A stretch of 64,000 nucleotides of DNA from Planctomycetota bacterium (GCA_009773755.1 WSZJ01000007.1:3493-67492), one strand, 5' to 3'; shown: positions 1,631-11,626, counted from the stretch's first letter. Numbers and translations: made by a program. Notes: generated by a model from the sequence alone, not told the origin.

Positions 1631-2500
1631 ATGCCTCTTCCCCTCGACGCCTTCTACACCGCCCTCGCCGCCACGGTCGGCTCGGCCCTCCCGTTGCCGA
1701 AAGCGCTGTCCTCGGCCGGCCGCCCCGATCTCGCGCTTCTCGCCGACGGCCGTCCGCTCGGCGACATCCTCGCCGCGGGAGGGATTCCCGAGCTCGACGT
1801 CGCGACGATTCGCGCCGCGGAGAGGTCGGGGCGAATCGAAGCGGCGCTGAAGGGATTGGCGAAGCGGGCACGAGAGGCGCTGATCCTGAAGCGGCGACTG
1901 CACGCGATCGTGCTCTATCCGCTGATCGTGGCGCACGGGATGGTGATCGCGCCGTGGGTGATCCAGTGGGTGTTCGCCAGCGTGTCGGTTTCCGTTCTCC
2001 TCTGGGACCTCGTGGCCATCTGGGTCTTCTTTTTTGTCGTCCGCGCCCTCCTCGCAAGCCGGATCGGCGAGAGCCTCCCCTGCGTCGGTTCGATCCGCCG
2101 CGACGTCGCCTGCGCGCGCTTCTGCGACTCACTCGCGGGCGCGCTCGACGCCGCGTTGCCGCTGAAGCGGGCGATCGAGTTAGCGGCAGACGCCGCGGGT
2201 GGCCCGACCGGCGCAAGAGCCCGCACCGCCGCGGCCGGGGACGTGAACCGCCCGCTCGTGGAGACGCTCGCCCCGGTCCTTCCTCCGTTCAGCGTCGAAA
2301 TGCTTCGCGCCGGCGAAGAGGCGGGGAGCATTGACAAGTCACTCACCAAGCTCGCCCAGCGGCATTTCGAGGACGCCGTGCATGCGCTCAACAAGCTGAT
2401 CGCGGTCCTGCCGCTTCTGCTGTTCTTCCTCGTGCTGGCGCTGTTCGTGCTGCAGTTGGCCGCTATCGGCGGACCGGTCTTCCACCGGCCTGCGCCGTAA
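1631..2500 (+). CDS. GspF/PilC-like (type II secretion system F domain) inner-membrane protein, short form
   Basis: 289 aa with two GspF-type repeats (AAERSGRIEAALKGLA and EMLRAGEEAGSIDKSLTKLA) separated by TM segments and ending in a TM helix. No other T2SS or pilus genes are adjacent. Confidence 0.55.
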   Translation: MPLPLDAFYTALAATVGSALPLPKALSSAGRPDLALLADGRPLGDILAAGGIPELDVATIRAAERSGRIEAALKGLAKRAREALILKRRLHAIVLYPLIVAHGMVIAPWVIQWVFASVSVSVLLWDLVAIWVFFFVVRALLASRIGESLPCVGSIRRDVACARFCDSLAGALDAALPLKRAIELAADAAGGPTGARARTAAAGDVNRPLVETLAPVLPPFSVEMLRAGEEAGSIDKSLTKLAQRHFEDAVHALNKLIAVLPLLLFFLVLALFVLQLAAIGGPVFHRPAP

Positions 2501-2542
2501 AGGAAGGGCGGGCGGGCAGGCGGGCGAGGCGCTTGTGGGGTG

Positions 2543-3088
2543 CTACTTCGCGAGTAGGTTCGCGACCGCCGCGCGCGTCCCGACCGCGTCGAAGAATCGC
2601 CCGGGACACGCCACCCCGCGCTTCTTCTCGCTCTCCGCGCACACCTCGCTCGACGGGATCAACTTCTCCCGGCACAACCGCGCGCAGAGCGCTTCCAGCG
2701 CCGCCTGCTGCTTTCGCGTCGGCTTCTCGCGGTCGATCCGCCCGATCAGGCAGATCTCGATGACCTCCCGGTTCAGGCCGGGCTGCTGAAGCGCCCACCG
2801 CGGGCTCGTCTCGACCTGCCCGTCTCCGGTTTCGGTCCCGTTGCCGATGACAAAATGGAAGGGAGCGCCTCCGCGCTCCGCGTGCGCCGCTTCGAGGGAC
2901 CGCAGGGATCCTTTCGGCGCGGAGTTCGAGTGAATCCAGATCCCGGCCCAGGGCCGCGTGGGCGGAGCGTCGGCCGCCGCAGCGGGCATTGCGACGGGGT
3001 AAGGCATCGCATCGTTGTGGAACACGACGACGACGGCAAGGAGGGTGGCCGTGATGAGCGTGACGAGCAGGAAATCGAAGAGACGCAT
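2543..3088 (-). CDS. N-acetylmuramoyl-L-alanine amidase (amidase_2/PGRP-like), membrane anchored
   Basis: Real start taken at MRLFDFLLVTLITATLL (ATG, rc of 3086-3088). The track ORF extends upstream through Arg/Gly-rich junk. Amidase_2-like blocks are present: WIHSNS, FHFVIGNG, RW, NREVIEICLIG, KPTRKQQAALEAL. Confidence 0.6.
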   Translation of the reverse strand: MRLFDFLLVTLITATLLAVVVVFHNDAMPYPVAMPAAAADAPPTRPWAGIWIHSNSAPKGSLRSLEAAHAERGGAPFHFVIGNGTETGDGQVETSPRWALQQPGLNREVIEICLIGRIDREKPTRKQQAALEALCARLCREKLIPSSEVCAESEKKRGVACPGRFFDAVGTRAAVANLLAK

Positions 3089-3155
3089 GTGCTTCCAATT
3101 TCGGCGTTTCACCGTTGCCGACTGAAGCGAGGGCGCTTTCCGGGCCTTTTCTGCG

Positions 3156-3188
3156 CCCTGCCTCCTGCCCACTACCCCCTGACCCCGA
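3156..3188. repeat. heptamer-periodic CCTGCCN/CTACCCN tract (GGTAG/CTACC family)
   Basis: The sequence cctgcct cctgccc actaccc cctgacc shares the 14-mer cccactaccccctg with 7358-7371. It overlaps the stop of the SnoaL-like gene. Confidence 0.6.
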
Positions 3189-3495
3189 GTTGTCCTTGAA
3201 GTCCGGTCGCCGCGATCCCGAGCCCCGGCCCCGAGTGGGTCCCGCGAAACGTGATCCGCCACGCGACGCGGTCCCCCTCTTCGATCAGGTCCTCGATCGC
3301 GACCTGCATGTCCGGATACGCGCTGACGAACGCCTGGTGAAACGCCCGGAATCCCGCGATCCCTCCCGCGCCTCCCTCCGGCAGCCCGTGAACGACGCAC
3401 TGTGGCGACGCGAGCCGGTCAATGGCCGCGGCGTCCTTCCGGTTCCAGACTTCATCAAACCACTGGCGAACGACGGCCTTCGCGGACTGGGGCAT
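3172..3495 (-). CDS. SnoaL-like (NTF2-fold, ester-cyclase-type) protein, apparently C-terminally shortened
   Basis: The N-terminus AVVRQWFDEVWNRKDAAAIDRL..YPDMQVAIEDLIEEGDRVAWRITFRGTHSGPGLGIAATG matches the predicted ester cyclase pattern. The last 9 codons and the TAG stop lie inside the GGTAG-type repeat. Confidence 0.5.
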   Translation of the reverse strand: MPQSAKAVVRQWFDEVWNRKDAAAIDRLASPQCVVHGLPEGGAGGIAGFRAFHQAFVSAYPDMQVAIEDLIEEGDRVAWRITFRGTHSGPGLGIAATGLQGQLGVRG

Positions 3496-3563
3496 CCGAC
3501 TCTCCTTCTAAACTGGTAGCAACGCCGATTCTACGAATCCGCGAACATCGTCGCATCAGAGCG

Positions 3564-4277
3564 TCACTTGCCGCTCGCGAACTCTTCCAGCTGGTGCCGA
3601 AGGGCCCGGAGTTGGACCAAAGTCGCGGGCAGGTCCTCGTAACGATTGCGAACCAGGGAATTCAGGGCTACTTTCTCGGCAGGTGTCAGGTCCTTGTGAT
3701 CCGCAAACATCCGATTTGAGGCCGAATAGAGCCTCGTGAATGCGTCACGAACATCGGAAACGGGCCCATCCACGGACAGGGTTTCAATCACCGCGACGAG
3801 CGCCGCCAGCGCGGCGAACGACTGGCGCTTGTCCGTCGTCCCGAGGCGCGCTTCCGTCAACAGGCACCGGCCAAGCGCCGCGGCCTCCTTGTATTCGTAC
3901 GGCCACGGCAAGCCGGTCTCGGGGAGCCTCCCACGCGACTCCTGCGCGTTCATGAGCTGCGAGAACTTCGAAGCCTCGTCCGTTACGCGTTTCGTCGCGA
4001 GGAACAGTGCCCGCGTCGGCAATTCGGCGGGCCGTCCCTTCGCAGCGACAATTCCGGCGCCCGCATCCTCGAGCTCGAGCAGCACTTTCCGGCGCACAGA
4101 GCCTTCCAGGTCCCACGCGTGAGCTTCGAATTCCGACAGGCAATGGAGGAAGCGTGTCCGTGCTGCGGAATAGGGGGCCGAGTCGGCCGATGTCGGCCCT
4201 GCCGAAGCGCTAGGAGTCGCGGGTTTCGGTTTGTCGCAACCCGCGAGCAGCAGCAGGACGATCAGAGCGCGCTTCAT
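3564..4277 (-). CDS. hypothetical lipoprotein
   Basis: Start at MKRALIVLLLLAGC (lipobox LAGC; ATG is rc of 4275-4277). The 614-aa track ORF is an out-of-context upstream extension through the TolC-like gene. Helical, no family recognised. Last gene of the metal island. Confidence 0.5.
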   Translation of the reverse strand: MKRALIVLLLLAGCDKPKPATPSASAGPTSADSAPYSAARTRFLHCLSEFEAHAWDLEGSVRRKVLLELEDAGAGIVAAKGRPAELPTRALFLATKRVTDEASKFSQLMNAQESRGRLPETGLPWPYEYKEAAALGRCLLTEARLGTTDKRQSFAALAALVAVIETLSVDGPVSDVRDAFTRLYSASNRMFADHKDLTPAEKVALNSLVRNRYEDLPATLVQLRALRHQLEEFASGK

Positions 4278-4282
4278 GCCGG

Positions 4283-5629
4283 CTACTTCGCGAATTCCGA
4301 AAGCGGCCGGTCCACTGCGGACTCCAGGTCCACTCGCGCCGATGCATACGCCGCTTCCGCCTCGATCGACTCGCCCAGGGAGTCGAGGTAGTCCTGCTGC
4401 GCGCGCAGCAGATCGGCGATGCCCAGGTTTCCGTCGGCGTAGGCGGCGCGCACGTCCTCGAGGTTCTTGGAAGCGAGGGGGAGGACTTCTTTCTCGAAGA
4501 GATCGAGAGTCTGCGAAGCGGCCTTGAGCCGGGCGGCGGACGCGGTGACTTCTCTTCCGACTTCGGACTCGAGGGCGGCGCGGAGGGCGTCGAAGCGGCG
4601 GCGGTCGGCCTGGGCTTCGAGAATTTCGCCTCGTTTCGAATTCCAGAGGGGCAGCGTGAGGGAGAGGCCGAATGTCACCATGTGGTCGTTCATGCGGATG
4701 TCGACCCCGTCGCCCTCGACGCGGCCTCGCTCCCATTCGTATCCGAGGCCGAGTCCGAGCTCGGGCGCGCCTTCCGCGTCGGCGAGCGTGGCGCGGGCGC
4801 CGGCTTCGACGGCGGCCTGCGACAGCACGTCCAGATCCGGCCGCCCGGTTCGCGCGGCGGCGAGAGCTTTGGCGAGATCGGGTTCGGGGCGGTCGGCGGG
4901 AAATGTCACGGCGAGGAGCCACCCGGCGGGCGGCGACTCGCCGGCGAGCGCCTCGACATCCGCGCGCGTTGCCTCGACTTCCCCCTCGGCAGACTTCACG
5001 GCGGCGCGCGCCTTCGCGGCGCGGACTTTCGCGGAATTCACGTCGGTCGCGGAAGCCTGGCGGGCGTCGTAACGAGCCACGGCGACCTCGACGTCCTTGG
5101 CGGCGAGCTCGGCGAAGCGGCGCGAGACATCCAGTTTCCGGAGTGCGATGGACGCGTTCCACCAGGCGAGACGCGCCCTGGAGCGGAGCTCGCGCAAGGC
5201 GTCGCGCGCTTCCGCGCCGGCGCGGGCGATCCCGGCTTCCGCCACGGCTTCCCGCTTCGAGAGCCTTCCGCCCAGATCGATCCGCTGGTGAACGCCGATC
5301 CCGGCCTGCGTGCTTTCGCCATCGACGGACTGCGCGCCCTCGAAGGCCACCTCCGGGTAGGACTGGTACGTCCCCGCCGCCACCTTCCGCGCGCGCGCCG
5401 CTTCCCACTCCTCAAGCGCCGCGATCGAGCGCCCGTGGCGCTCCACGGCGCGCAGAAGTTCGGCGAGCGAGAGGCCGTCGGACCAGTCGATCGGGGCGGC
5501 GGGAGGCGGGACCGCGAAATCCCCATGGCCCGTTCTCCAGTCGGGGAGCGGGACCGGGCGGTCCTCGATGGCAGCGCAGCCAGCGAGCGCGAAGAAAAGC
5601 AGGAGCGGGAGGAATCGAGTCGTCATCAT
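4283..5629 (-). CDS. TolC-family outer-membrane efflux lipoprotein (OMF/NodT-CusC-like), copy 1
   Basis: 448 aa with lipobox FALAGC. It has the two-repeat OMF architecture of long Ala/Arg-rich helices, and a C-terminal LLRAQQDYLDS..AEAAYASARVDLESAV block typical of OMFs. The start overlaps the stop of the YHS lipoprotein (AAATGA). Confidence 0.8.
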   Translation of the reverse strand: MMTTRFLPLLLFFALAGCAAIEDRPVPLPDWRTGHGDFAVPPPAAPIDWSDGLSLAELLRAVERHGRSIAALEEWEAARARKVAAGTYQSYPEVAFEGAQSVDGESTQAGIGVHQRIDLGGRLSKREAVAEAGIARAGAEARDALRELRSRARLAWWNASIALRKLDVSRRFAELAAKDVEVAVARYDARQASATDVNSAKVRAAKARAAVKSAEGEVEATRADVEALAGESPPAGWLLAVTFPADRPEPDLAKALAAARTGRPDLDVLSQAAVEAGARATLADAEGAPELGLGLGYEWERGRVEGDGVDIRMNDHMVTFGLSLTLPLWNSKRGEILEAQADRRRFDALRAALESEVGREVTASAARLKAASQTLDLFEKEVLPLASKNLEDVRAAYADGNLGIADLLRAQQDYLDSLGESIEAEAAYASARVDLESAVDRPLSEFAK

Positions 5630-6063
5630 TTGTGGTCGCTCCCTTCGTGGTTGTGACCGTGGCTACCCGATCCGTCCACGGGTTGGGGATCTCCGCACTC
5701 GCACCTCTCCGCCTTGTCCTGGCAATGGCCGCACCCGCAGTGCTTCATGGCGCCCGTGGAGCAAATGCATTTTTCTTTCGGGAGCCCCGTCATCGCGGCC
5801 GAGGGGGCCGCCTTGAACGTGTCGAGGCAGGCGGTCGAGCAGAAGTGAAACCGCGTTTCGCGGTAGACGAATTCCGGCTGTCCGGCGATCGAGAAGAGCT
5901 TTCCGCACGCAGGGTCGCGCGCGCTGCCATCAACGGCGGTCTCCGAGTCTGCGTGCGCGGCGCCCGTGCCGTGATCGTGATCGTCGTGTTCGTTGCTGCT
6001 GCCGCAGCCCGCGATTGCCGCTACGAGCAGCGAAGTTGCGAATTTCACAAGTGATCCGCGCAT
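5626..6063 (-). CDS. YHS/TRASH-domain metal-binding lipoprotein, His/Cys-rich
   Basis: Lipobox AIAGC and an HDDHDH tract. YHS-like core DPACGKLF..YRETRFHFCSTACLDTF. Cys cluster CICSTGAMKHCGCGHCQDKAERCEC. His-rich C-terminal tail GSGSHGHNHEGSDHK. Confidence 0.7.
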   Translation of the reverse strand: MRGSLVKFATSLLVAAIAGCGSSNEHDDHDHGTGAAHADSETAVDGSARDPACGKLFSIAGQPEFVYRETRFHFCSTACLDTFKAAPSAAMTGLPKEKCICSTGAMKHCGCGHCQDKAERCECGDPQPVDGSGSHGHNHEGSDHK

Positions 6064-6091
6064 GAAGGGCTCCTTGCTCCAGGGGGAAAAA

Positions 6092-7311
6092 CTACTTGGG
6101 ACCGCCGCCGACTTTGTACGCCATCGTCCCTTCAGGGTGCTTGTACCAGCCCGGGTCTTCGTAGCTGGTGATGCCGTCGCGCACCTTCAGAATCGTGAAC
6201 ATGCCTCCCATGCCGAGGTTGTCGAAGGGTCCCTTGCCGGTCATCATCGCCAGCGTGTTCTCAGGACCGGGCATGTGATCGGCCATGTCCTGCATTTCGG
6301 CCATTCCCTTCTCTCCCATTGCCATGTATCCGGGGAGCAGCTTCCGGATTCTCCCCTCCAGCCCCTTCTGGTCCACGCCGATCATGTTGGGAACGTGATG
6401 TCCCATCGCGTTCATGACGTGGTGGGATTTGTGGCAGTGGAGGGCCCAGTCCCCCGGGAGGTCGGCGACCCATTCGATGTCGCGCGTGGCTCCGACGGGC
6501 ACGAGGACCGTCGTTTCGGGCCACCCCGCGGACTCCGGAACGTCGCCGCCGTCGGTGCCGGTGACGGTGAAGGATGCTCGTCCATGCTCAAGTTGGCGAT
6601 GCGGATCCGCACGCGCTGGCCGGTTCTGACGACCAGGGGGGCCGTGCCGGGGAACGCCTTGCCGTTGAACGAGAAGGTGTTGAAGTCGAGCATGACGGAA
6701 GGGTCGGGGCGGTACGTCCCCGGTTCGATCGCCCACATGTGCAGGAAGATGGAGAAGTCACGGTCGATTTTCCGCGACGCCTTTTTGGGGTGGATGACGA
6801 ACATGCCCATCATGCCGACCGCCATCTGGGTCATTTCGTCCACGTGCGGGTGGTACATCTGCGTCCCGTGCTGGATCAGGGTGAACTCGTAAGCCCACGT
6901 CTCTCCCGGCTGGATGTACGGTTGCGTCAGCCCGCCCACGCCGTCCATTCCGCAGGGAAGCAGGACGCCGTGCCAGTGGACGCTCGTGGGCTCCGGCAGC
7001 TTGTTCTCCACGAAGATCCGCACCTTGTCGCCTTCCACGCACTCGATGGTCGGCCCCGGCGTTCGCCCGTTGTAGCCCCAGGCCTTCACCTTGCACCCCG
7101 GGGCGAATTCGTGTTCCACTTCCTCGGCAATCAGATGGAATTCCTTCACGCCGTCCTTCATCACGAACGGAAGAGTGGCCCCGTTGGGAGTTTCGACTGG
7201 CGTGTAGCCGTCCGCGGCGGGCGGATCTTCCGCGCGCGCCGTCCCGCCCAGCAGCAGCCCGGCCCCGGCCAGCGCCGCCCCGCCCGTCACGAGCAACTCT
7301 CTTCGCGTCAT
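6092..7311 (-). pseudogene. multicopper oxidase (CopA/CueO-like, Tat signal) with a frameshifting deletion
   Basis: Split between track ORFs 6412..7374 and 6092..6736. Tat motif MTRRELLVTGGAALAGAG. Cu motifs HWHG, HPH and HCHKSHHVMNAM are present. The frame breaks at 6571/6572, where ..ANLSMDEHP joins FTVTGTDGG and the expected HxHxH copper site is missing. Length is 1220 nt, not a multiple of 3. Confidence 0.75.
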
Positions 7312-7353
7312 CACGATCCACCTCCTCTTCGCCGCCTCGATGCTTTGGTTGTT

Positions 7354-7379
7354 CCTACCCACTACCCCCTGCAAACTCC
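7354..7379. repeat. heptamer-periodic CTACCC-type tract
   Basis: The sequence cctaccc actaccc cctgcaa actccct lies in the spacer between the TolC-like copy 2 stop and the MCO start. Confidence 0.55.
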
Positions 7380-8741
7380 CTACTTCTTCTCCCCCGGCAG
7401 CCGTCCTCCCACCGCGCGTTCCAGCTCCGCCCGCGCGATCCAGTAGTCCCTGACCATTTCAATCGACTCGTCGTACGCGTCGTACTCTTCCTGCCGCGCA
7501 CGAAGCACTTCCGCAACGCCGATCAGCATGAAGTTGTATTCCCTGAGCGCGAGTTCCACGATCCGCTCGCGAAGCGGGATTACGACCCTTTGAAGGTGCT
7601 CAGCCTTGCGCCGGTGCGTGAGGAGCCGTTCCCTTGCGGAGCGCACCTCGGAGCGAATCCGGATCGCGAGGTCCCGATTTGTCGACTCGCGCCGCCGGAG
7701 CTCCGCTTCGAGCGCGAATATCGCCGCCTGCTGGCGGTCGAATATCGGAAGACTCAGCGCCAGGCTCGGACCGTACGCCCAGCCGACCTCCGGTTCGAGC
7801 TCCCGATGCGCATCGAATCCCAGCTCGACCGTTCCGAGCCACCGGAACGCCTTCACAAGGTCGAGACGCTCGACAGAAGCGTCTCGCTCCCGCCGGGCCG
7901 CAGCGAGATCGAGACGGCGCGCGATGGCGAGGGACTCGAGCCCGTTCAGCGCGATTTCAGTTCCCGGCATGTCCGGGAGTTTCTTCGGGGCCGTCCACGC
8001 GACCTGGGTTCCCCATGCGCCGAGAATTACCGTCAGGTTCTCCCGCGCCTCGGATACCTGCTCTTCCGCCTTCACCCAGGCCATCTTTGAGCTCTCGGAC
8101 TGGTCGCGCTCCCGCGAGGCCGCAAGCTCGCTCAGATTCCCCGCATCCTTCAACCGCGCCGCCAGGTCGGCCTGTGCTTCCGCCGCCGCAGCAATCGCGT
8201 GGCGAACCTCGGCCCGCTGCTGCGCCGCCACAACCTCGAGCCACGCCACCTTCGCGCGCGCCGCCATCTCGATCACGTCGTCGACGACGTGGAATTTGAC
8301 CCGCTCAAATTCCATCGAAGCGACTTCCTTCCGGGCGGGAATCATCAGCAGGTCGAGAAAATTCTGCGCGATCTCGAAGTCCATTCCCGTGACCACGCCG
8401 GGCCTCGTGGGGAAATGGGCGCTTCCGAAAATCGTCGGATTCGAGAGAATTCCGGCCTGCACGAGGTCGGCCTGGGCGACGCCGAGGTCCTCGTAATGGG
8501 ACTGCAATTCCGGGTTGTTCAAGAGCGCGATCTGCACGACGGATTCCGACGTCAGCTCGCGCGAAAACAATTCGTCGATCGTACGTCGGACCTCCGCGTC
8601 CTCGGGACCGCCCCGGAACCAGTGAACCTTCTTTGCCGTGCGTTCCTCGGCGGGCTTCCGGACGTCCTCAAATCCCGCGTCCTCCGGGACGGAGCAGCCC
8701 GCCAGCACGATCGCCGCTACAGTCGGGAGCCAGGTTTTCAT
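7380..8741 (-). CDS. TolC-family outer-membrane efflux lipoprotein, copy 2
   Basis: 453 aa with lipobox VLAGC and OMF helical repeat architecture. The start overlaps the stop of the HMBD lipoprotein through the same GACCACAAATGA junction as copy 1. Confidence 0.8.
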   Translation of the reverse strand: MKTWLPTVAAIVLAGCSVPEDAGFEDVRKPAEERTAKKVHWFRGGPEDAEVRRTIDELFSRELTSESVVQIALLNNPELQSHYEDLGVAQADLVQAGILSNPTIFGSAHFPTRPGVVTGMDFEIAQNFLDLLMIPARKEVASMEFERVKFHVVDDVIEMAARAKVAWLEVVAAQQRAEVRHAIAAAAEAQADLAARLKDAGNLSELAASRERDQSESSKMAWVKAEEQVSEARENLTVILGAWGTQVAWTAPKKLPDMPGTEIALNGLESLAIARRLDLAAARRERDASVERLDLVKAFRWLGTVELGFDAHRELEPEVGWAYGPSLALSLPIFDRQQAAIFALEAELRRRESTNRDLAIRIRSEVRSARERLLTHRRKAEHLQRVVIPLRERIVELALREYNFMLIGVAEVLRARQEEYDAYDESIEMVRDYWIARAELERAVGGRLPGEKK

Positions 8742-9049
8742 TTGTGGTCATGCCCCTTGTGCTCCCCTGCCGGCGCCTCCTTGACGGGCTGCAGGTCCAT
8801 GCCGCACTTCGGACACGCCCCGGCCTTGGCACTCTTCACTTCAGGATGCATCGGGCAGGTCCACGTCGCGCCCTCGGGCGGCTTCTCATCCGCCAGCGGT
8901 TCCACCGGCCCGCTCAGCCGGTCGGGCGGCGGCGCCCACGCCGTCTCGGGCGCCGCCGGGTTGGCCGGGTCGGTCGCGGATGGCGGCCCGTCGCCGCTTC
9001 CCGCACATCCGGCAAGGGAGGCCAGCAGGACCAGAAACAGGGATTTCAT
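8738..9049 (-). CDS. heavy-metal-binding-domain (HMBD) lipoprotein
   Basis: Lipobox SLAGC. WTCPMHPEVKSAKAGACPKCGMDLQPV matches the YTCPMHPE..CPxCGMxL HMBD motif found at the N-termini of Cu/Ag efflux components. C-terminal tail EHKGHDHK. Confidence 0.75.
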   Translation of the reverse strand: MKSLFLVLLASLAGCAGSGDGPPSATDPANPAAPETAWAPPPDRLSGPVEPLADEKPPEGATWTCPMHPEVKSAKAGACPKCGMDLQPVKEAPAGEHKGHDHK

Positions 9050-9136
9050 GGGGAGTCCTCGAGGAAAGAATGAGTCGGAAGCGGCGATGGCGCCCGCGGG
9101 ACGGAGGCCGGGCGCGACGAGGGACTGGCGTGCGCG

Positions 9137-9499
9137 CTAGATCAGCAGCGATGCGTGAAGGGTGGCCAGCGGGCGGCCCGGCGGCGCGCGTCCGCCGGTG
9201 ACGGAAGCGGGCGGCGGAAGGGCGGGTAGCGAAGGGAACCCGGCGGGCGCGATGCCGGCGGCTGGCTGGGCGACTGGCGCGGGATCGTCCACGATCGCGA
9301 GGGTGATGCCGTCGACGCAGCAGCAGGCCGTCGGGGCCGGCGCCTTCGGTTCGGTCGGCAGGCGCTTCCCGCAGCAGGAATGCGCCGGCTTCGGCTCGCG
9401 CGGCGCGGGGACTGACATCGACGCCCGGCACGCCGTGGCGGCGAAATTCCCGGCGATGAACGCCGTGGTGGCCAGCAGTGCCGTCAATCCCCGCTTCAT
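9137..9499 (-). CDS. small secreted Cys-cluster protein, unknown function
   Basis: Signal-peptide-like N-terminus MKRGLTALLATTAFIAGNFAA. Cys clusters HSCCGK and ACCCVDG, then a Pro/Ala-rich C-terminus. ATGA overlap with the glycerate kinase stop. No family recognised. Confidence 0.4.
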   Translation of the reverse strand: MKRGLTALLATTAFIAGNFAATACRASMSVPAPREPKPAHSCCGKRLPTEPKAPAPTACCCVDGITLAIVDDPAPVAQPAAGIAPAGFPSLPALPPPASVTGGRAPPGRPLATLHASLLI

Positions 9500-10476
9500 C
9501 TCTTCACCTTACCGGACCCCGGTCCGCTTCTCAATCGCGAATGCGTTTCCCGGAATGCCGCTTCTTCCAACAGCCGCGCCGGGTCCCGCATTCCCGCGCG
9601 TGCGGATCGGGCGATTGCGACGACCCCCTGCGCCCTTTCCCGGACGGAGCCGCAGAGGGCGACGCAGGGAACGCCCGCCCTGCGCGCCCGGCGCATGACC
9701 TCGCCGGGCGCCTTGCCCTCCCGCGTCGTCGCGTCCCATTTCCCCTCCCCGGTGAGCACAAAGTCGCATTGACGCAGTGCGTCATCGAAGCGGAGCGCGT
9801 CGAGCACGAAGGCCGCGCCGGGCCGGAGTTCAGCGCCCAGGAGCGCGAGCGCCCAGCCGATCCCGCCCGCCGCCCCCGAGCCGGGGAGACGGGCCGCGCG
9901 GCGGCCTCCCGGGATCCGGACGATCCCGCGGAAGTATTTCTCCAGGTCCCTTACGTCCGCCGGCGTGGCTCCCTTTTGCGGGCCGAAGCGTCTCGGGGCA
10001 TCCATGAAGCGGGTTGAGACGTCGCAGGCGGCGACCATGCGGGGCCGCTTGGCCAGCTCCGAAAGGCCCGCGAGAAGCCCCGCTCCCGCGTCAATTGACG
10101 CCGAGCCCCCGAGCGCGACCACGATTCGTCCCGCGCCGCGCTCCGCCGCGTGCCGGATCATTTCGGCGACGCCCACGGATGTGGCGATTGCCGGCTCACG
10201 GCGCCCGGTCCGCGCCAGGCCGACTTGCGCAACTTCCACAATCGCCTCGCGTCCTTTCCTCCGGTATTCCACCCGCAACCGTTCGCCATAAGGGCCCGTC
10301 GCCGTCATCTGCACTGGCCGCCCGCCAAGCACCGCAGCGGTTCCGTCGCCGCCGTCGGCAACCGGCAGAAGCACCGGCCTGCCCCCGGCGCGCTTCACGC
10401 CGCGCGCCATCGCCTTCGCGGCCTCAAGCGCCGTCAGCGTCCCCTTGTAGGCATTCGGCGAGCACAGCACCTTCAT
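9496..10476 (-). CDS. glycerate kinase family protein
   Basis: Family blocks are present: APNAYKGTLTA, VADGGDGT, ALGGSASIDAGAG, FGPQKGAT, GSGAAGGIG, LTGEGKWD. Confidence 0.8.
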   Translation of the reverse strand: MKVLCSPNAYKGTLTALEAAKAMARGVKRAGGRPVLLPVADGGDGTAAVLGGRPVQMTATGPYGERLRVEYRRKGREAIVEVAQVGLARTGRREPAIATSVGVAEMIRHAAERGAGRIVVALGGSASIDAGAGLLAGLSELAKRPRMVAACDVSTRFMDAPRRFGPQKGATPADVRDLEKYFRGIVRIPGGRRAARLPGSGAAGGIGWALALLGAELRPGAAFVLDALRFDDALRQCDFVLTGEGKWDATTREGKAPGEVMRRARRAGVPCVALCGSVRERAQGVVAIARSARAGMRDPARLLEEAAFRETHSRLRSGPGSGKVKR

Positions 10477-10530
10477 GGATTCACCTCGGGAAAGTTGTTG
10501 GTGGAGCTCGGCCGTTGATTCTGGAGAGGA

Positions 10531-10617
10531 AGTCTGTAGTGGGTAGTCGGTAGTTGGTAGGTACTCCTCCCGCGCCGCTGGTCGTTCCTGCCAACTACCG
10601 ACTACCCACTACAGACT
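10531..10617. repeat. perfect 27-bp inverted repeat built from GTAGTNG heptamers
   Basis: agtctgtagtgggtagtcggtagttgg (10531-10557) is the exact reverse complement of ccaactaccgactacccactacagact (10591-10617), with a 33-nt spacer. It sits in the divergent region between the glycerate kinase and HDAC genes. Confidence 0.85.
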
Positions 10618-10660
10618 GCCTCTCCCTCGTTATCCACCACTCTCACAGTTACCACCTCCA

Positions 10661-11626
10661 TTGTCCGACAATCCCCCGATCATGTCGCGCGCCCCATCGC
10701 GATACACTTCCCACGTGATTCTCTTCTCGCACACCGCCTGCAACGCTCACCGGGCCCCTCTGGGCCACCCCGAATGCCCGGAGCGGCTCGATTCGATCGT
10801 AAAGGCGATCGGAATCGCGCGAGCAGGATGGAAATGGACCGAGCCGCGGCCGGCGACGCGGGAAGAGCTCCTTCCGATCCACACCGCGGGGCATGTGGAG
10901 CGAGTATCCGCCGCGCAGGAGTACGCGCCGACTCAGCTCGATCCGGACACGTACCTCTCGGACGGGTCGGTCCGCGCCGCCCTCCTCGCCGCCGGCGCCG
11001 CGCGCGACGCCGCGCGATCGGCCATGGCCGGCAAACCCGCCGCAGCAATTGTCCGTCCCCCCGGCCACCACGCCACCCGCGACCGCGCCATGGGCTTCTG
11101 CCTCTTCAATAATGTCGCGTTGGCGGCGAAGCAGGCGAAGCGCGTGCTGATCGTCGACTGGGACGTGCACCACGGGAACGGGACGCAGGACATTTTTTAC
11201 GAGGACCCGGACGTGCTGTATTTCTCCACGCACCGCTGGCCGTTCTACCCCGGGACCGGCTCGAGGGCCGAGACGGGAAGCGGCCGCGGCCTGGGATTCA
11301 CGATCAACCGACCGTTTCCATGGAATACCGGCGCGGCGACGTTCAAGGCGGAGTTCGCCGCGGTCATCGACGGACCGTGCCGGAAATTCGACCCCGAACT
11401 CGTGCTGATTTCCGCCGGATTCGACGCGTGGAAGAACGACCCGATCGGCGGGCTCAATCTCGAGGTCGCGGATTTCGCGGAATTGACGGAAATCGTGAAG
11501 GGGCTGAAGCGCCCGATCGCAAGCGTGCTCGAAGGCGGGTACGATCTGGAGGCGTTGCCGAAATGCGTGATGGCTCACCTTGAAGCGCTGGCGAGTGGTG
11601 AGCCACGAAAGGCCGCGATCCCGTAA
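10661..11626 (+). CDS. histone deacetylase-family (HDAC/AcuC/Aph-like) deacetylase
   Basis: HPECPERL, RPPGHHA, GFCLFNNVALAA, DWDVHHGNGTQ and SAGFDAW blocks are present. The start could be the internal Met (MSRAPS). Confidence 0.85.
   Translation: MSDNPPIMSRAPSRYTSHVILFSHTACNAHRAPLGHPECPERLDSIVKAIGIARAGWKWTEPRPATREELLPIHTAGHVERVSAAQEYAPTQLDPDTYLSDGSVRAALLAAGAARDAARSAMAGKPAAAIVRPPGHHATRDRAMGFCLFNNVALAAKQAKRVLIVDWDVHHGNGTQDIFYEDPDVLYFSTHRWPFYPGTGSRAETGSGRGLGFTINRPFPWNTGAATFKAEFAAVIDGPCRKFDPELVLISAGFDAWKNDPIGGLNLEVADFAELTEIVKGLKRPIASVLEGGYDLEALPKCVMAHLEALASGEPRKAAIP

Follow-up and report, generated by a model that had tools for sequence, protein, structure and literature searches.

The gene row

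The stretch of DNA analysed here, termed the window, comprises 64,000 nucleotides (positions 3493–67492) of the 99-kb contig C242 from a draft genome of an uncultured Planctomycetota bacterium (5.78 Mb in 302 contigs, 88% complete). Within the window a row of seven co-directional genes is located on the minus strand between a glycerate kinase gene (9496–10476) and a SnoaL-like gene (3172–3495). The row codes for two TolC-family outer membrane factors (OMFs), each preceded by a small metal-binding lipoprotein, and for a multicopper oxidase (MCO). From 5′ to 3′ the genes are:

9137–9499, minus strand: Cys-cluster exported protein, 120 amino acids, with CC..CCC motifs and a conserved C-terminus ..TLHASLLI
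8738–9049, minus strand: HMBD lipoprotein, 103 amino acids, Pfam PF19335 at 50.3 bits
7380–8741, minus strand: OMF2, TolC-family, predicted lipidated, 453 amino acids, two repeats of Pfam OEP at 107.7 bits
6092–7311, minus strand: multicopper oxidase of the two-domain type with a twin-arginine translocation (Tat) signal, Pfam Cu-oxidase_3 and Cu-oxidase_2
5626–6063, minus strand: YHS/Cys-rich lipoprotein, 145 amino acids, Pfam YHS at 24.4 bits, below the cut-off of 30.3
4283–5629, minus strand: OMF1, TolC-family, predicted lipidated, of the CusC/CzcC type, 448 amino acids, Pfam OEP at 139.7 bits
3564–4277, minus strand: orphan lipoprotein, 237 amino acids, starting MKRALIVLLLLAGC.., from translation of the open reading frame

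The gene calls and coordinates of this row (3564–9499) had been given in an original prediction made from the sequence alone and were confirmed by the open reading frames and the Pfam matches. The same is true for the position of the MCO gene between both lipoprotein–OMF pairs and for the Cys-cluster protein and the third lipoprotein at the flanks. The absence of pump genes from the run, which had also been pointed out, extends to the whole 99-kb contig, on which tblastn detected no RND, MFP or P-type ATPase gene. As detailed below, the row is built from two unrelated units, the HMBD lipoprotein, OMF2 and oxidase (unit 1) and the YHS lipoprotein and OMF1 (unit 2), and is not a duplicated pump-free system.

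The junctions of the two lipoprotein–OMF pairs

Both lipoprotein genes are joined to the following OMF gene by a 4-nt ATGA overlap of stop and start codon, and the identical 12-mer GACCACAAATGA is found exactly at 8738 and 5626, as predicted. One extra copy only is present in the rest of the genome. The conclusion that had been drawn from this, namely that the row contains a duplicated module, could not be upheld. OMF1 and OMF2 are 25% identical across 318 amino acids, and in the family tree of OMF2, OMF1 stands apart on a very long branch of its own. The lipoproteins, too, are unrelated: they have different domains, and their similarity is limited to the tail ..H.G.DHK (E 0.15–0.2), which reads EHKGHDHK in the HMBD lipoprotein and NHEGSDHK in the YHS lipoprotein.

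A C-terminus of the form (D/G)H(G)K occurs in six of the about 5,019 predicted proteins of the genome, five of these being periplasmic proteins accessory to heavy-metal RND islands: both lipoproteins of the window, the adaptor MFP_a (...DHGK), a His-rich lipoprotein encoded after RND_b, and a secreted protein beside a pump on contig C285 (sites: window 5626 and 8738, C155:19988, C155:22403 and C285:18934). The tail looks like a lineage-specific metal-binding signature. Because a DHK tail, GC-biased codons (GAC, CAC) and the AAA required for the ATGA overlap coincide at the junctions, there is hardly any freedom left in the shared 12-mer, which is no relic of a duplication.

Unit 2 and its pump-linked relatives

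The YHS lipoprotein consists of a lipobox, a His-rich N-terminus, the YHS domain, a cluster of seven cysteines and the His tail. Its YHS match (PF04945) has an E value of 2.8e-5. Among 5.8 billion protein clusters a single homologue was found (P0122, 57% identity), for which a PF04945 match is precomputed. In a close relative (L161) P0122 is encoded just 3′ of RND_b and an HMBD lipoprotein at the end of the RND_b operon, and the RND_b protein of this relative is 95% identical to RND_b of the genome studied here.

Close relatives of OMF1 are confined to the genus. Its orthologues (57–69% identity) are situated in or beside MFP–RND operons of the congeners G002, G003, G004 and G006 in the following gene orders:

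G004: MCO, OMF1, [AAA], MFP_a, RND_a
G003: response regulator, FNT transporter, Cys protein, OMF1, [AAA], MFP_a, RND_a, ATPase, Cys paralogue
G002: glycerate kinase, Cys protein, OMF1, [AAA], MFP_a, RND_a
G006: glycerate kinase, Cys paralogue, YHS protein, cytochrome c, OMF1, MFP_b, RND_b, His lipoprotein

In G006 the genes for cytochrome c, OMF1, MFP_b and RND_b follow each other with 4-nt overlaps, and in G004 the adaptor, RND and AAA genes are 84–86% identical to their counterparts on contig C155 of the genome studied here. No YHS lipoprotein is encoded upstream of the OMF1 orthologues in G002, G003, G004 and G006; the YHS lipoprotein–OMF1 pairing was found in this population only. The copper islands of the genus are heavily rearranged. 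Judged by homology and gene order, unit 2 is a displaced piece of ordinary cusCBA-type systems. Pump independence, which had been suggested for both OMFs, is thus not borne out for OMF1: its pairing with the lipoprotein is not conserved, and it groups with pump-associated OMFs, the partners having been displaced.

Two pumps without an OMF on another contig

As an alternative it had been considered that the modules recruit pumps encoded elsewhere. A search of the genome identified two CusA/CzcA-family RND genes, each with an adaptor gene, on contig C155. The island reads as follows:

C155, 13.8–31 kb, one strand: Cys-protein paralogue, YHS protein, di-haem cytochrome c, MFP_b, RND_b, His lipoprotein, [AAA, opposite strand], MFP_a, RND_a, P-type ATPase

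RND_a and RND_b score 892.5 and 776.5 bits against the CusA/CzcA model TIGR00914 (cut-off 701.45), both adaptors match CusB/CzcB in NCBIfam, and MFP_a contains two HMBD modules. No OEP match was obtained on contig C155. The third and only other heavy-metal RND gene of the genome, on C285, has its own OMF beside it. Since C155 is without an OMF, C242 is without a pump and the C285 pump is already supplied, two OMF-less heavy-metal pumps face two pump-less OMFs. RND and MFP genes in an operon with the OMF, absent from C242, are present for the OMF1 orthologues and for some OMF2 orthologues (L045, L079). Recruitment of pumps from elsewhere is therefore firmly supported for OMF1 and is plausible for OMF2.

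Unit 1 is a widely conserved three-gene module

The HMBD lipoprotein has a lipobox (LAGC), an N-terminal motif DPANPAAPETAW.PPPD, an HMBD module CPMHPE..CPKCGM and the His tail. The HMBD match covers residues 63–89 and lies well above the gathering threshold of PF19335 (23.6 bits). The protein is probably a membrane-anchored periplasmic Cu(I) chaperone. No CusF domain (PF11604) was matched on any protein of the row in Pfam; the HMBD and YHS lipoproteins occupy the place of CusF there.

Each OMF of the row has two OEP stretches (PF02321, cut-off 22 bits), and the N-terminal lipoboxes ..FALAGC (OMF1) and ..VLAGC (OMF2) are the reason why lipidation is predicted. Both stay below the curated OMF models of NCBIfam (OMF1 and OMF2, respectively: TIGR01844, 58 and 43.7 bits, cut-off 225; NodT, 22.8 and 40.7 bits, cut-off 210; IhpA, about 31 bits, cut-off 650). 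For OMF1 a sequence search of the PDB gave only weak TolC matches, for OMF2 it gave no match. OMF2 has more than 3,500 homologues, under the JGI name czcC-like.

With OMF2 as single query no related loci were found, but an alignment query recovered 80 named loci. They belong to Planctomycetota, Desulfobacterales, Myxococcota (including Myxococcus xanthus), Gamma- and Alphaproteobacteria, Verrucomicrobiota, Omnitrophota, Binatia and Rhodothermia. An oxidase gene adjoins the OMF2 homologue downstream in 100 of the 107 loci tallied across many phyla. Among 401 Planctomycetota genomes 39 have an OMF2 homologue, and the oxidase gene follows directly in 30 of the 31 loci inspected. Rare exceptions are the low-GC loci L044 (G279) and L073 (Candidatus Jettenia ecosi), where an HMBD lipoprotein–OMF2 pair is present without a detectable adjacent oxidase gene. 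OMF2 homologues were also found in 160 plasmid records.

The lipoprotein is the third, conserved partner in this arrangement. Past the lipid-modified cysteine its N-terminal motif has the consensus ...LP..HPANP.APEAPF.PP.N.L. A strict regular expression gave 29 loci, and an iterated hidden Markov model (HMM) was used instead. In the genome studied here the HMBD lipoprotein is the single match of this model among 60,419 open reading frame segments (E 2.5e-9). At least 64 of the 105 loci with sufficient upstream sequence have an HPANP-motif lipoprotein upstream of the OMF2 homologue, and in 45 of these 64 its gene overlaps the OMF start by 4 nt. The region following the motif varies and may be an HMBD, a YHS/TRASH-like domain (L004, L132), a CusF-like domain recognised by eye (L134, L145) or, in Desulfobacterales, His/Met-rich tails only. 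We conclude that the HMBD lipoprotein, OMF2 and MCO genes form a widely conserved three-gene module.

Pump genes are found near this trio in part of the loci. Among the 58 loci with at least 7 kb on each side, RND genes are close by in 18 and P1B ATPase genes in 18; in 30 there is neither, and the RND-linked members are dispersed across the OMF2 tree. In five loci (L045, L079, L072, L074 and L086) the genes for MFP, RND, lipoprotein, OMF2 and MCO follow each other in this order on one strand; the upstream lipoprotein was detected by the HMBD probe in four of them and by listing the open reading frames in L072. No further OMF was detected in these five loci with OMF1 and OMF2 probes. This order amounts to a complete cus-like operon with the trio at its 3′ end. 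At the level of the whole genome, an RND match with E ≤ 1e-100 was obtained in 28 of 28 trio-bearing genomes tested, of which 24 pass the CusA/CzcA cut-off, so that the mere presence of a heavy-metal RND gene does not discriminate. A recurrence of the lipoprotein–OMF pairing across genomes, which the original prediction had raised, was accordingly found for the HMBD lipoprotein–OMF2–MCO trio, across phyla and mostly without a pump within 7–8 kb, and not for the second pair.

The multicopper oxidase

The oxidase gene of the window contains a 25-nt gap near 6571 (6560–6585), seen in comparison with congeners and with L157, which deletes the copper-ligand motif HPIHLHG and shifts the frame. In the same population an intact gene of 414 codons is present in L157 and L158. 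L157 is an ENA assembly from another sample and is 99.8% identical to the window over 11.5 kb. Compared with L157 the window also lacks 86 nt in the SnoaL gene (at about 3195), the product of which has 107 amino acids here and 136 amino acids in L157. Two gaps within 11.5 kb suggest assembly artefacts or minor variants of the metagenome-assembled genome.

In 49 members of the oxidase family (55–69% identity) the copper ligands do not vary, and a Met-rich block at the C-terminus is conserved. The four ligand motifs HWH, HPH, HPIHLHG and HCHKSHH..M are invariant in all 49 and complete in L157, the third being the one deleted in the window. Among solved structures, 4f7k, 6vow and the two-domain laccase 2zwn come closest in sequence. 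The AlphaFold2 monomer model (pLDDT 82.5) predicts two beta (cupredoxin) domains for residues ~40–305, mostly with pLDDT above 85, and a Met-rich region of about 110 C-terminal residues at lower confidence. In Foldseek the model is closest to the two-domain oxidases 2zwn, 3g5w and 3gdc (target TM-scores 0.71–0.76), which are trimers. Against the copper_res_A model TIGR01480 the oxidase reaches 124.7 bits (cut-off 478.95).

Similar to the (D/G)H(G)K tails described above, the oxidase orthologues of the congeners end in ..GHK. In relatives, members of the oxidase family are fused either to four HMBD repeats at the C-terminus (L015/G010, 7679–9277) or to a membrane domain at the N-terminus, the latter in a protein of 670 amino acids (L012/G019, 7296–9308).

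Flanking genes and putative regulatory sites

The ATG of the Cys-cluster protein overlaps the stop codon of the glycerate kinase gene by 4 nt, and a promoter and terminator scan of 2500–11000 revealed no informative promoter and no terminator-like site on the minus strand inside the run. The row is probably cotranscribed with the upstream glycerate kinase gene. An Rfam scan of the same region gave no family match.

For the Cys-cluster protein no match was found in Pfam or NCBIfam. A paralogue is encoded at C155:30567–30962, and orthologues stand at the head of copper gene rows in G002, G003, G004, G005 and G006. A small exported Cys-cluster family (..CC.K.., ..CCC.D.., C-terminus PPGR.P..PL.TLHASLLI) leads the copper gene rows in all congeners examined. 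At the other end, the orphan lipoprotein starts 5 nt past the OMF1 stop codon. It matched only itself among 5.8 billion protein clusters and has no Pfam match; it is also present in the sister assembly L157.

The divergent region between the MFP_a and AAA-ATPase genes (C155:21455–21629) contains two copies of a 14-bp palindrome, GCGCGAATTCGCGC, 8 nt apart and upstream of MFP_a. This palindrome is a candidate operator of the pump operon and was not found in the window row. The 11-nt sequence GTAGTGGGTAG in the spacer between OMF2 and the oxidase gene (7312–7379) exactly matches both arms of a perfect 27-bp inverted repeat (10531–10617) upstream of the glycerate kinase gene (E ~0.01–0.03); this may be a shared regulator half-site or chance. 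A common operator based on GTAGTGGGTAG or GCGCGAATTCGCGC was rejected, as neither amounts to a shared motif.

Comparison with known systems

The core of unit 1, an OMF gene followed by an oxidase gene, is already known from Sinorhizobium meliloti and M. xanthus. According to a review, the copper-induced 'MCO operon' of S. meliloti CCNWSX0020 consists of omp, cueO, the gene of an azurin-like protein and that of a copper chaperone; an omp gene is cited there as enhancing copper tolerance, together with the proposal that oxidation of Cu(I) is followed by Cu(II) export across the outer membrane (PMC6266702). A different strain, S. meliloti KH35c, carries on a plasmid a small lipoprotein gene, a TolC-family gene, a copper oxidase gene, an azurin-like gene and a gene for a copper-binding protein. 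As in the window, the OMF (31% identity to OMF2) is encoded directly upstream of a Tat-exported oxidase of the same family with a Met-rich C-terminal block, the small lipoprotein gene overlaps the OMF start by 4 nt, and the operon contains no pump. The small protein, however, has neither the HPANP motif nor an HMBD, and the operon continues with the azurin-like and copper-binding protein genes instead of a second OMF. In Burkholderia contaminans the plasmid order is copRS, a small open reading frame, a TolC-family gene, a copper oxidase gene, a copper-binding protein gene, copC and copD, again with no pump.

In M. xanthus the OMF gene MXAN_3424 has cuoB and corE as linked genes and is preceded by a promoter of the CorE type; the role of the OMF or of a small lipoprotein is not discussed in the CorE paper (PMC3107203). 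The locus of M. xanthus AM003 (L087) has the order copB, lipoprotein, OMF, MCO, ECF sigma factor, HMA protein, HMBD lipoprotein, OMF (45% identical to OMF2) and MCO. It thus contains two tandem trios around the ECF sigma factor and HMA genes, whereas the window row has one trio and no regulator gene. The first small lipoprotein of L087 has a degenerate N-terminal motif (..SLRAPEAPRPNL..).

With CusCFBA of Escherichia coli the genome studied here shares a CusA/CzcA-family RND protein, a CusB-like adaptor, a putatively lipidated OMF and a small periplasmic metal carrier, and in the congeners the OMF1 orthologues stand in a cusCBA-like order. In contrast to E. coli the genes are split over two loci, CusF is replaced by HMBD, YHS or His-tailed lipoproteins, MFP_a has two HMBD modules and the oxidase gene is tied to OMF2. 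From its distribution the HMBD module appears to be mobile among lipoprotein, oxidase and adaptor. Unit 1 resembles CopABCD/PcoABCD in that an oxidase gene is paired with a gene for an outer membrane protein. Here, however, the partner is a TolC-type OMF (PF02321) and not CopB (PF05275), for which there was no Pfam match on any protein of the row, and the oxidase has a two-domain core, in contrast to the three-domain copper_res_A oxidase CopA/PcoA.

For the binding of a lipoprotein to an OMF, TolC–YbjP of E. coli provides a precedent, in which the lipoprotein is located on the periplasmic surface of the OMF in a 3:3 stoichiometry (PMC13082787, PMC13095208). YbjP is a DUF3828 protein for which metal binding is not reported and to which the lipoproteins of the row would not be expected to be similar in sequence. 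Going by the coupling of the genes, the HPANP lipoprotein may bind OMF2. As far as we found, this conserved lipoprotein partner of the OMF–oxidase pair is apparently undescribed in the literature. A Bradyrhizobium tolC/copA paper was set aside, as it deals with a general TolC mutant and not with an OMF–oxidase gene pair.

Possible functions of the row

We considered several explanations of how the row could function. In our view it probably represents the outer, or envelope, half of a copper/silver defence, in which the two CusBA-type pumps encoded on C155, having no OMF of their own, use OMF1 and OMF2 in trans as exit ducts. The Tat-exported oxidase would turn periplasmic Cu(I) into Cu(II), the HMBD lipoprotein would be a membrane-anchored Cu(I) carrier standing in for CusF, and OMF2 would be the exit duct through the outer membrane. 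MFP_a, with its two HMBD modules as acceptor sites, could take over Cu(I) from the HMBD lipoprotein. OMF1 would be a CusC/CzcC-type OMF with the YHS lipoprotein as metal-binding accessory protein, likewise an anchored Cu(I) carrier, both having been split by rearrangement from cusCBA-like operons in which their relatives still sit. The DHK tail common to the window lipoproteins, MFP_a and accessory proteins of the pump islands counts in favour of this assignment.

Several points weigh against it. OMF2 and the oxidase behave as a self-contained genetic unit, with more than half of the full-flank loci devoid of a nearby RND or P1B ATPase gene, and simple sharing of a duct leaves their near-absolute linkage unexplained. 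On the B. contaminans plasmid the unit lies between copRS and copCD, where copAB would be, and in S. meliloti it lies in an operon with the azurin-like gene, in both cases with no pump. A search for a regulatory motif common to the window row and to the island on C155 found none. Strict RND_a orthologues occur in 11 of the 39 trio-bearing genomes and in 22 of the other 362 (odds ratio 6.1, p = 7e-5), an association that is not obligate, was scored with two candidates per genome and is confounded by the general co-inheritance of copper islands. Furthermore, the assignment depends on a draft genome in many contigs.

The second explanation, which we regard as possible though rather unlikely, is that the trio disposes of copper independently of any pump, by oxidising it and letting it out as in CopA/CopB (PcoA/PcoB), with no RND protein or adaptor and with OMF2 in place of the CopB porin. 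The lipoprotein would then deliver Cu(I) or gate the channel, and OMF1 alone would need the C155 pumps. As an idea this is not new, a proposal of this kind for the MCO operon of S. meliloti being cited in the review mentioned above; the reported copper induction of that operon and the enhancement of copper tolerance by an omp gene agree with it (PMC6266702). The oxidase gene behind OMF2 in nearly all loci of many phyla, the 30 full-flank loci without pump genes within 7–8 kb, the scattered RND linkage on the OMF2 tree and the pump-less gene orders on the two plasmids argue in the same direction, as does the two-domain core of the oxidase, which resembles trimeric enzymes and thereby matches the symmetry of an OMF. 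The periplasmic end of an OMF such as TolC or CusC is closed at rest and is opened by the adaptor, and we know of no adaptor-free opening of an OMF. This speaks against a pump-free unit, and so do the position of the trio at the 3′ end of MFP–RND operons in several Planctomycetota, the two OMF-less CusBA pairs of this genome and the RND match in every trio-bearing genome tested. A copper-sensitive OMF mutant would be equally expected if the OMF served a pump. The pump-independent arrangement put forward in the original prediction accordingly fails for unit 2; for unit 1, which recurs across phyla and mostly without a pump within 7–8 kb, it may still apply.

A more specific form of this explanation, which seems doubtful to us, is an RND-independent disposal machine in which a trimeric two-domain cuprous oxidase and the lipoprotein dock on the trimeric OMF and copper, oxidised at the mouth of the channel, exits the periplasm with neither an inner-membrane pump nor an adaptor. 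The lipoprotein would consist of an invariant HPANP anchor and an exchangeable metal-binding head (HMBD, YHS/TRASH, CusF-like or His/Met tail). If true, a TolC-type channel would for the first time be seen to be used without an adaptor.

Third, the row could be a decaying, rearranged and partly dead copper island, considering the loss of the HPIHLHG ligands and of the frame in the window oxidase, the rearranged islands of the genus and the orphan nature of the downstream lipoprotein. We consider this very unlikely: the oxidase is intact in L157 and L158, both OMFs and both metal-binding lipoproteins have full-length frames with intact lipoboxes, and the additional gap in the SnoaL gene points to assembly gaps.

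Finally, a true tandem duplication of a lipoprotein–OMF cassette followed by divergence, for which the common 12-mer, the agreement of 20 of 27 nt across the junctions and the common architecture, in which the gene of a small metal-binding lipoprotein overlaps that of an OMF by ATGA, could be quoted, is already contradicted by our results and improbable in the extreme, since apart from the low identity and separate branch of the OMFs, the differing lipoprotein domains with their non-significant similarity and the DHK tail of unrelated accessory proteins, the N-terminal motif HMM matches the HMBD lipoprotein only, G003 has unit 1 without unit 2 at the site, and the OMF1 orthologues have different upstream genes.

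Implications

An OMF gene without neighbouring pump genes is no evidence of pump independence; here the pumps are found on another contig, and it is the synteny of the congeners that reveals the origin of the channel genes. The OMF–oxidase pair is among the most widespread copper-defence gene pairs that are still without a worked-out mechanism. To this pair a third, unannotated partner can be added, a lipoprotein whose N-terminal motif is specific and whose metal-binding heads are interchangeable. This third partner, the two-domain architecture of the oxidase, which is trimeric in the solved examples, and the trio as tail of a cusBA-type operon in some lineages define clean constructs and make it more testable whether an oxidase alone is a sufficient partner for a TolC-type channel.

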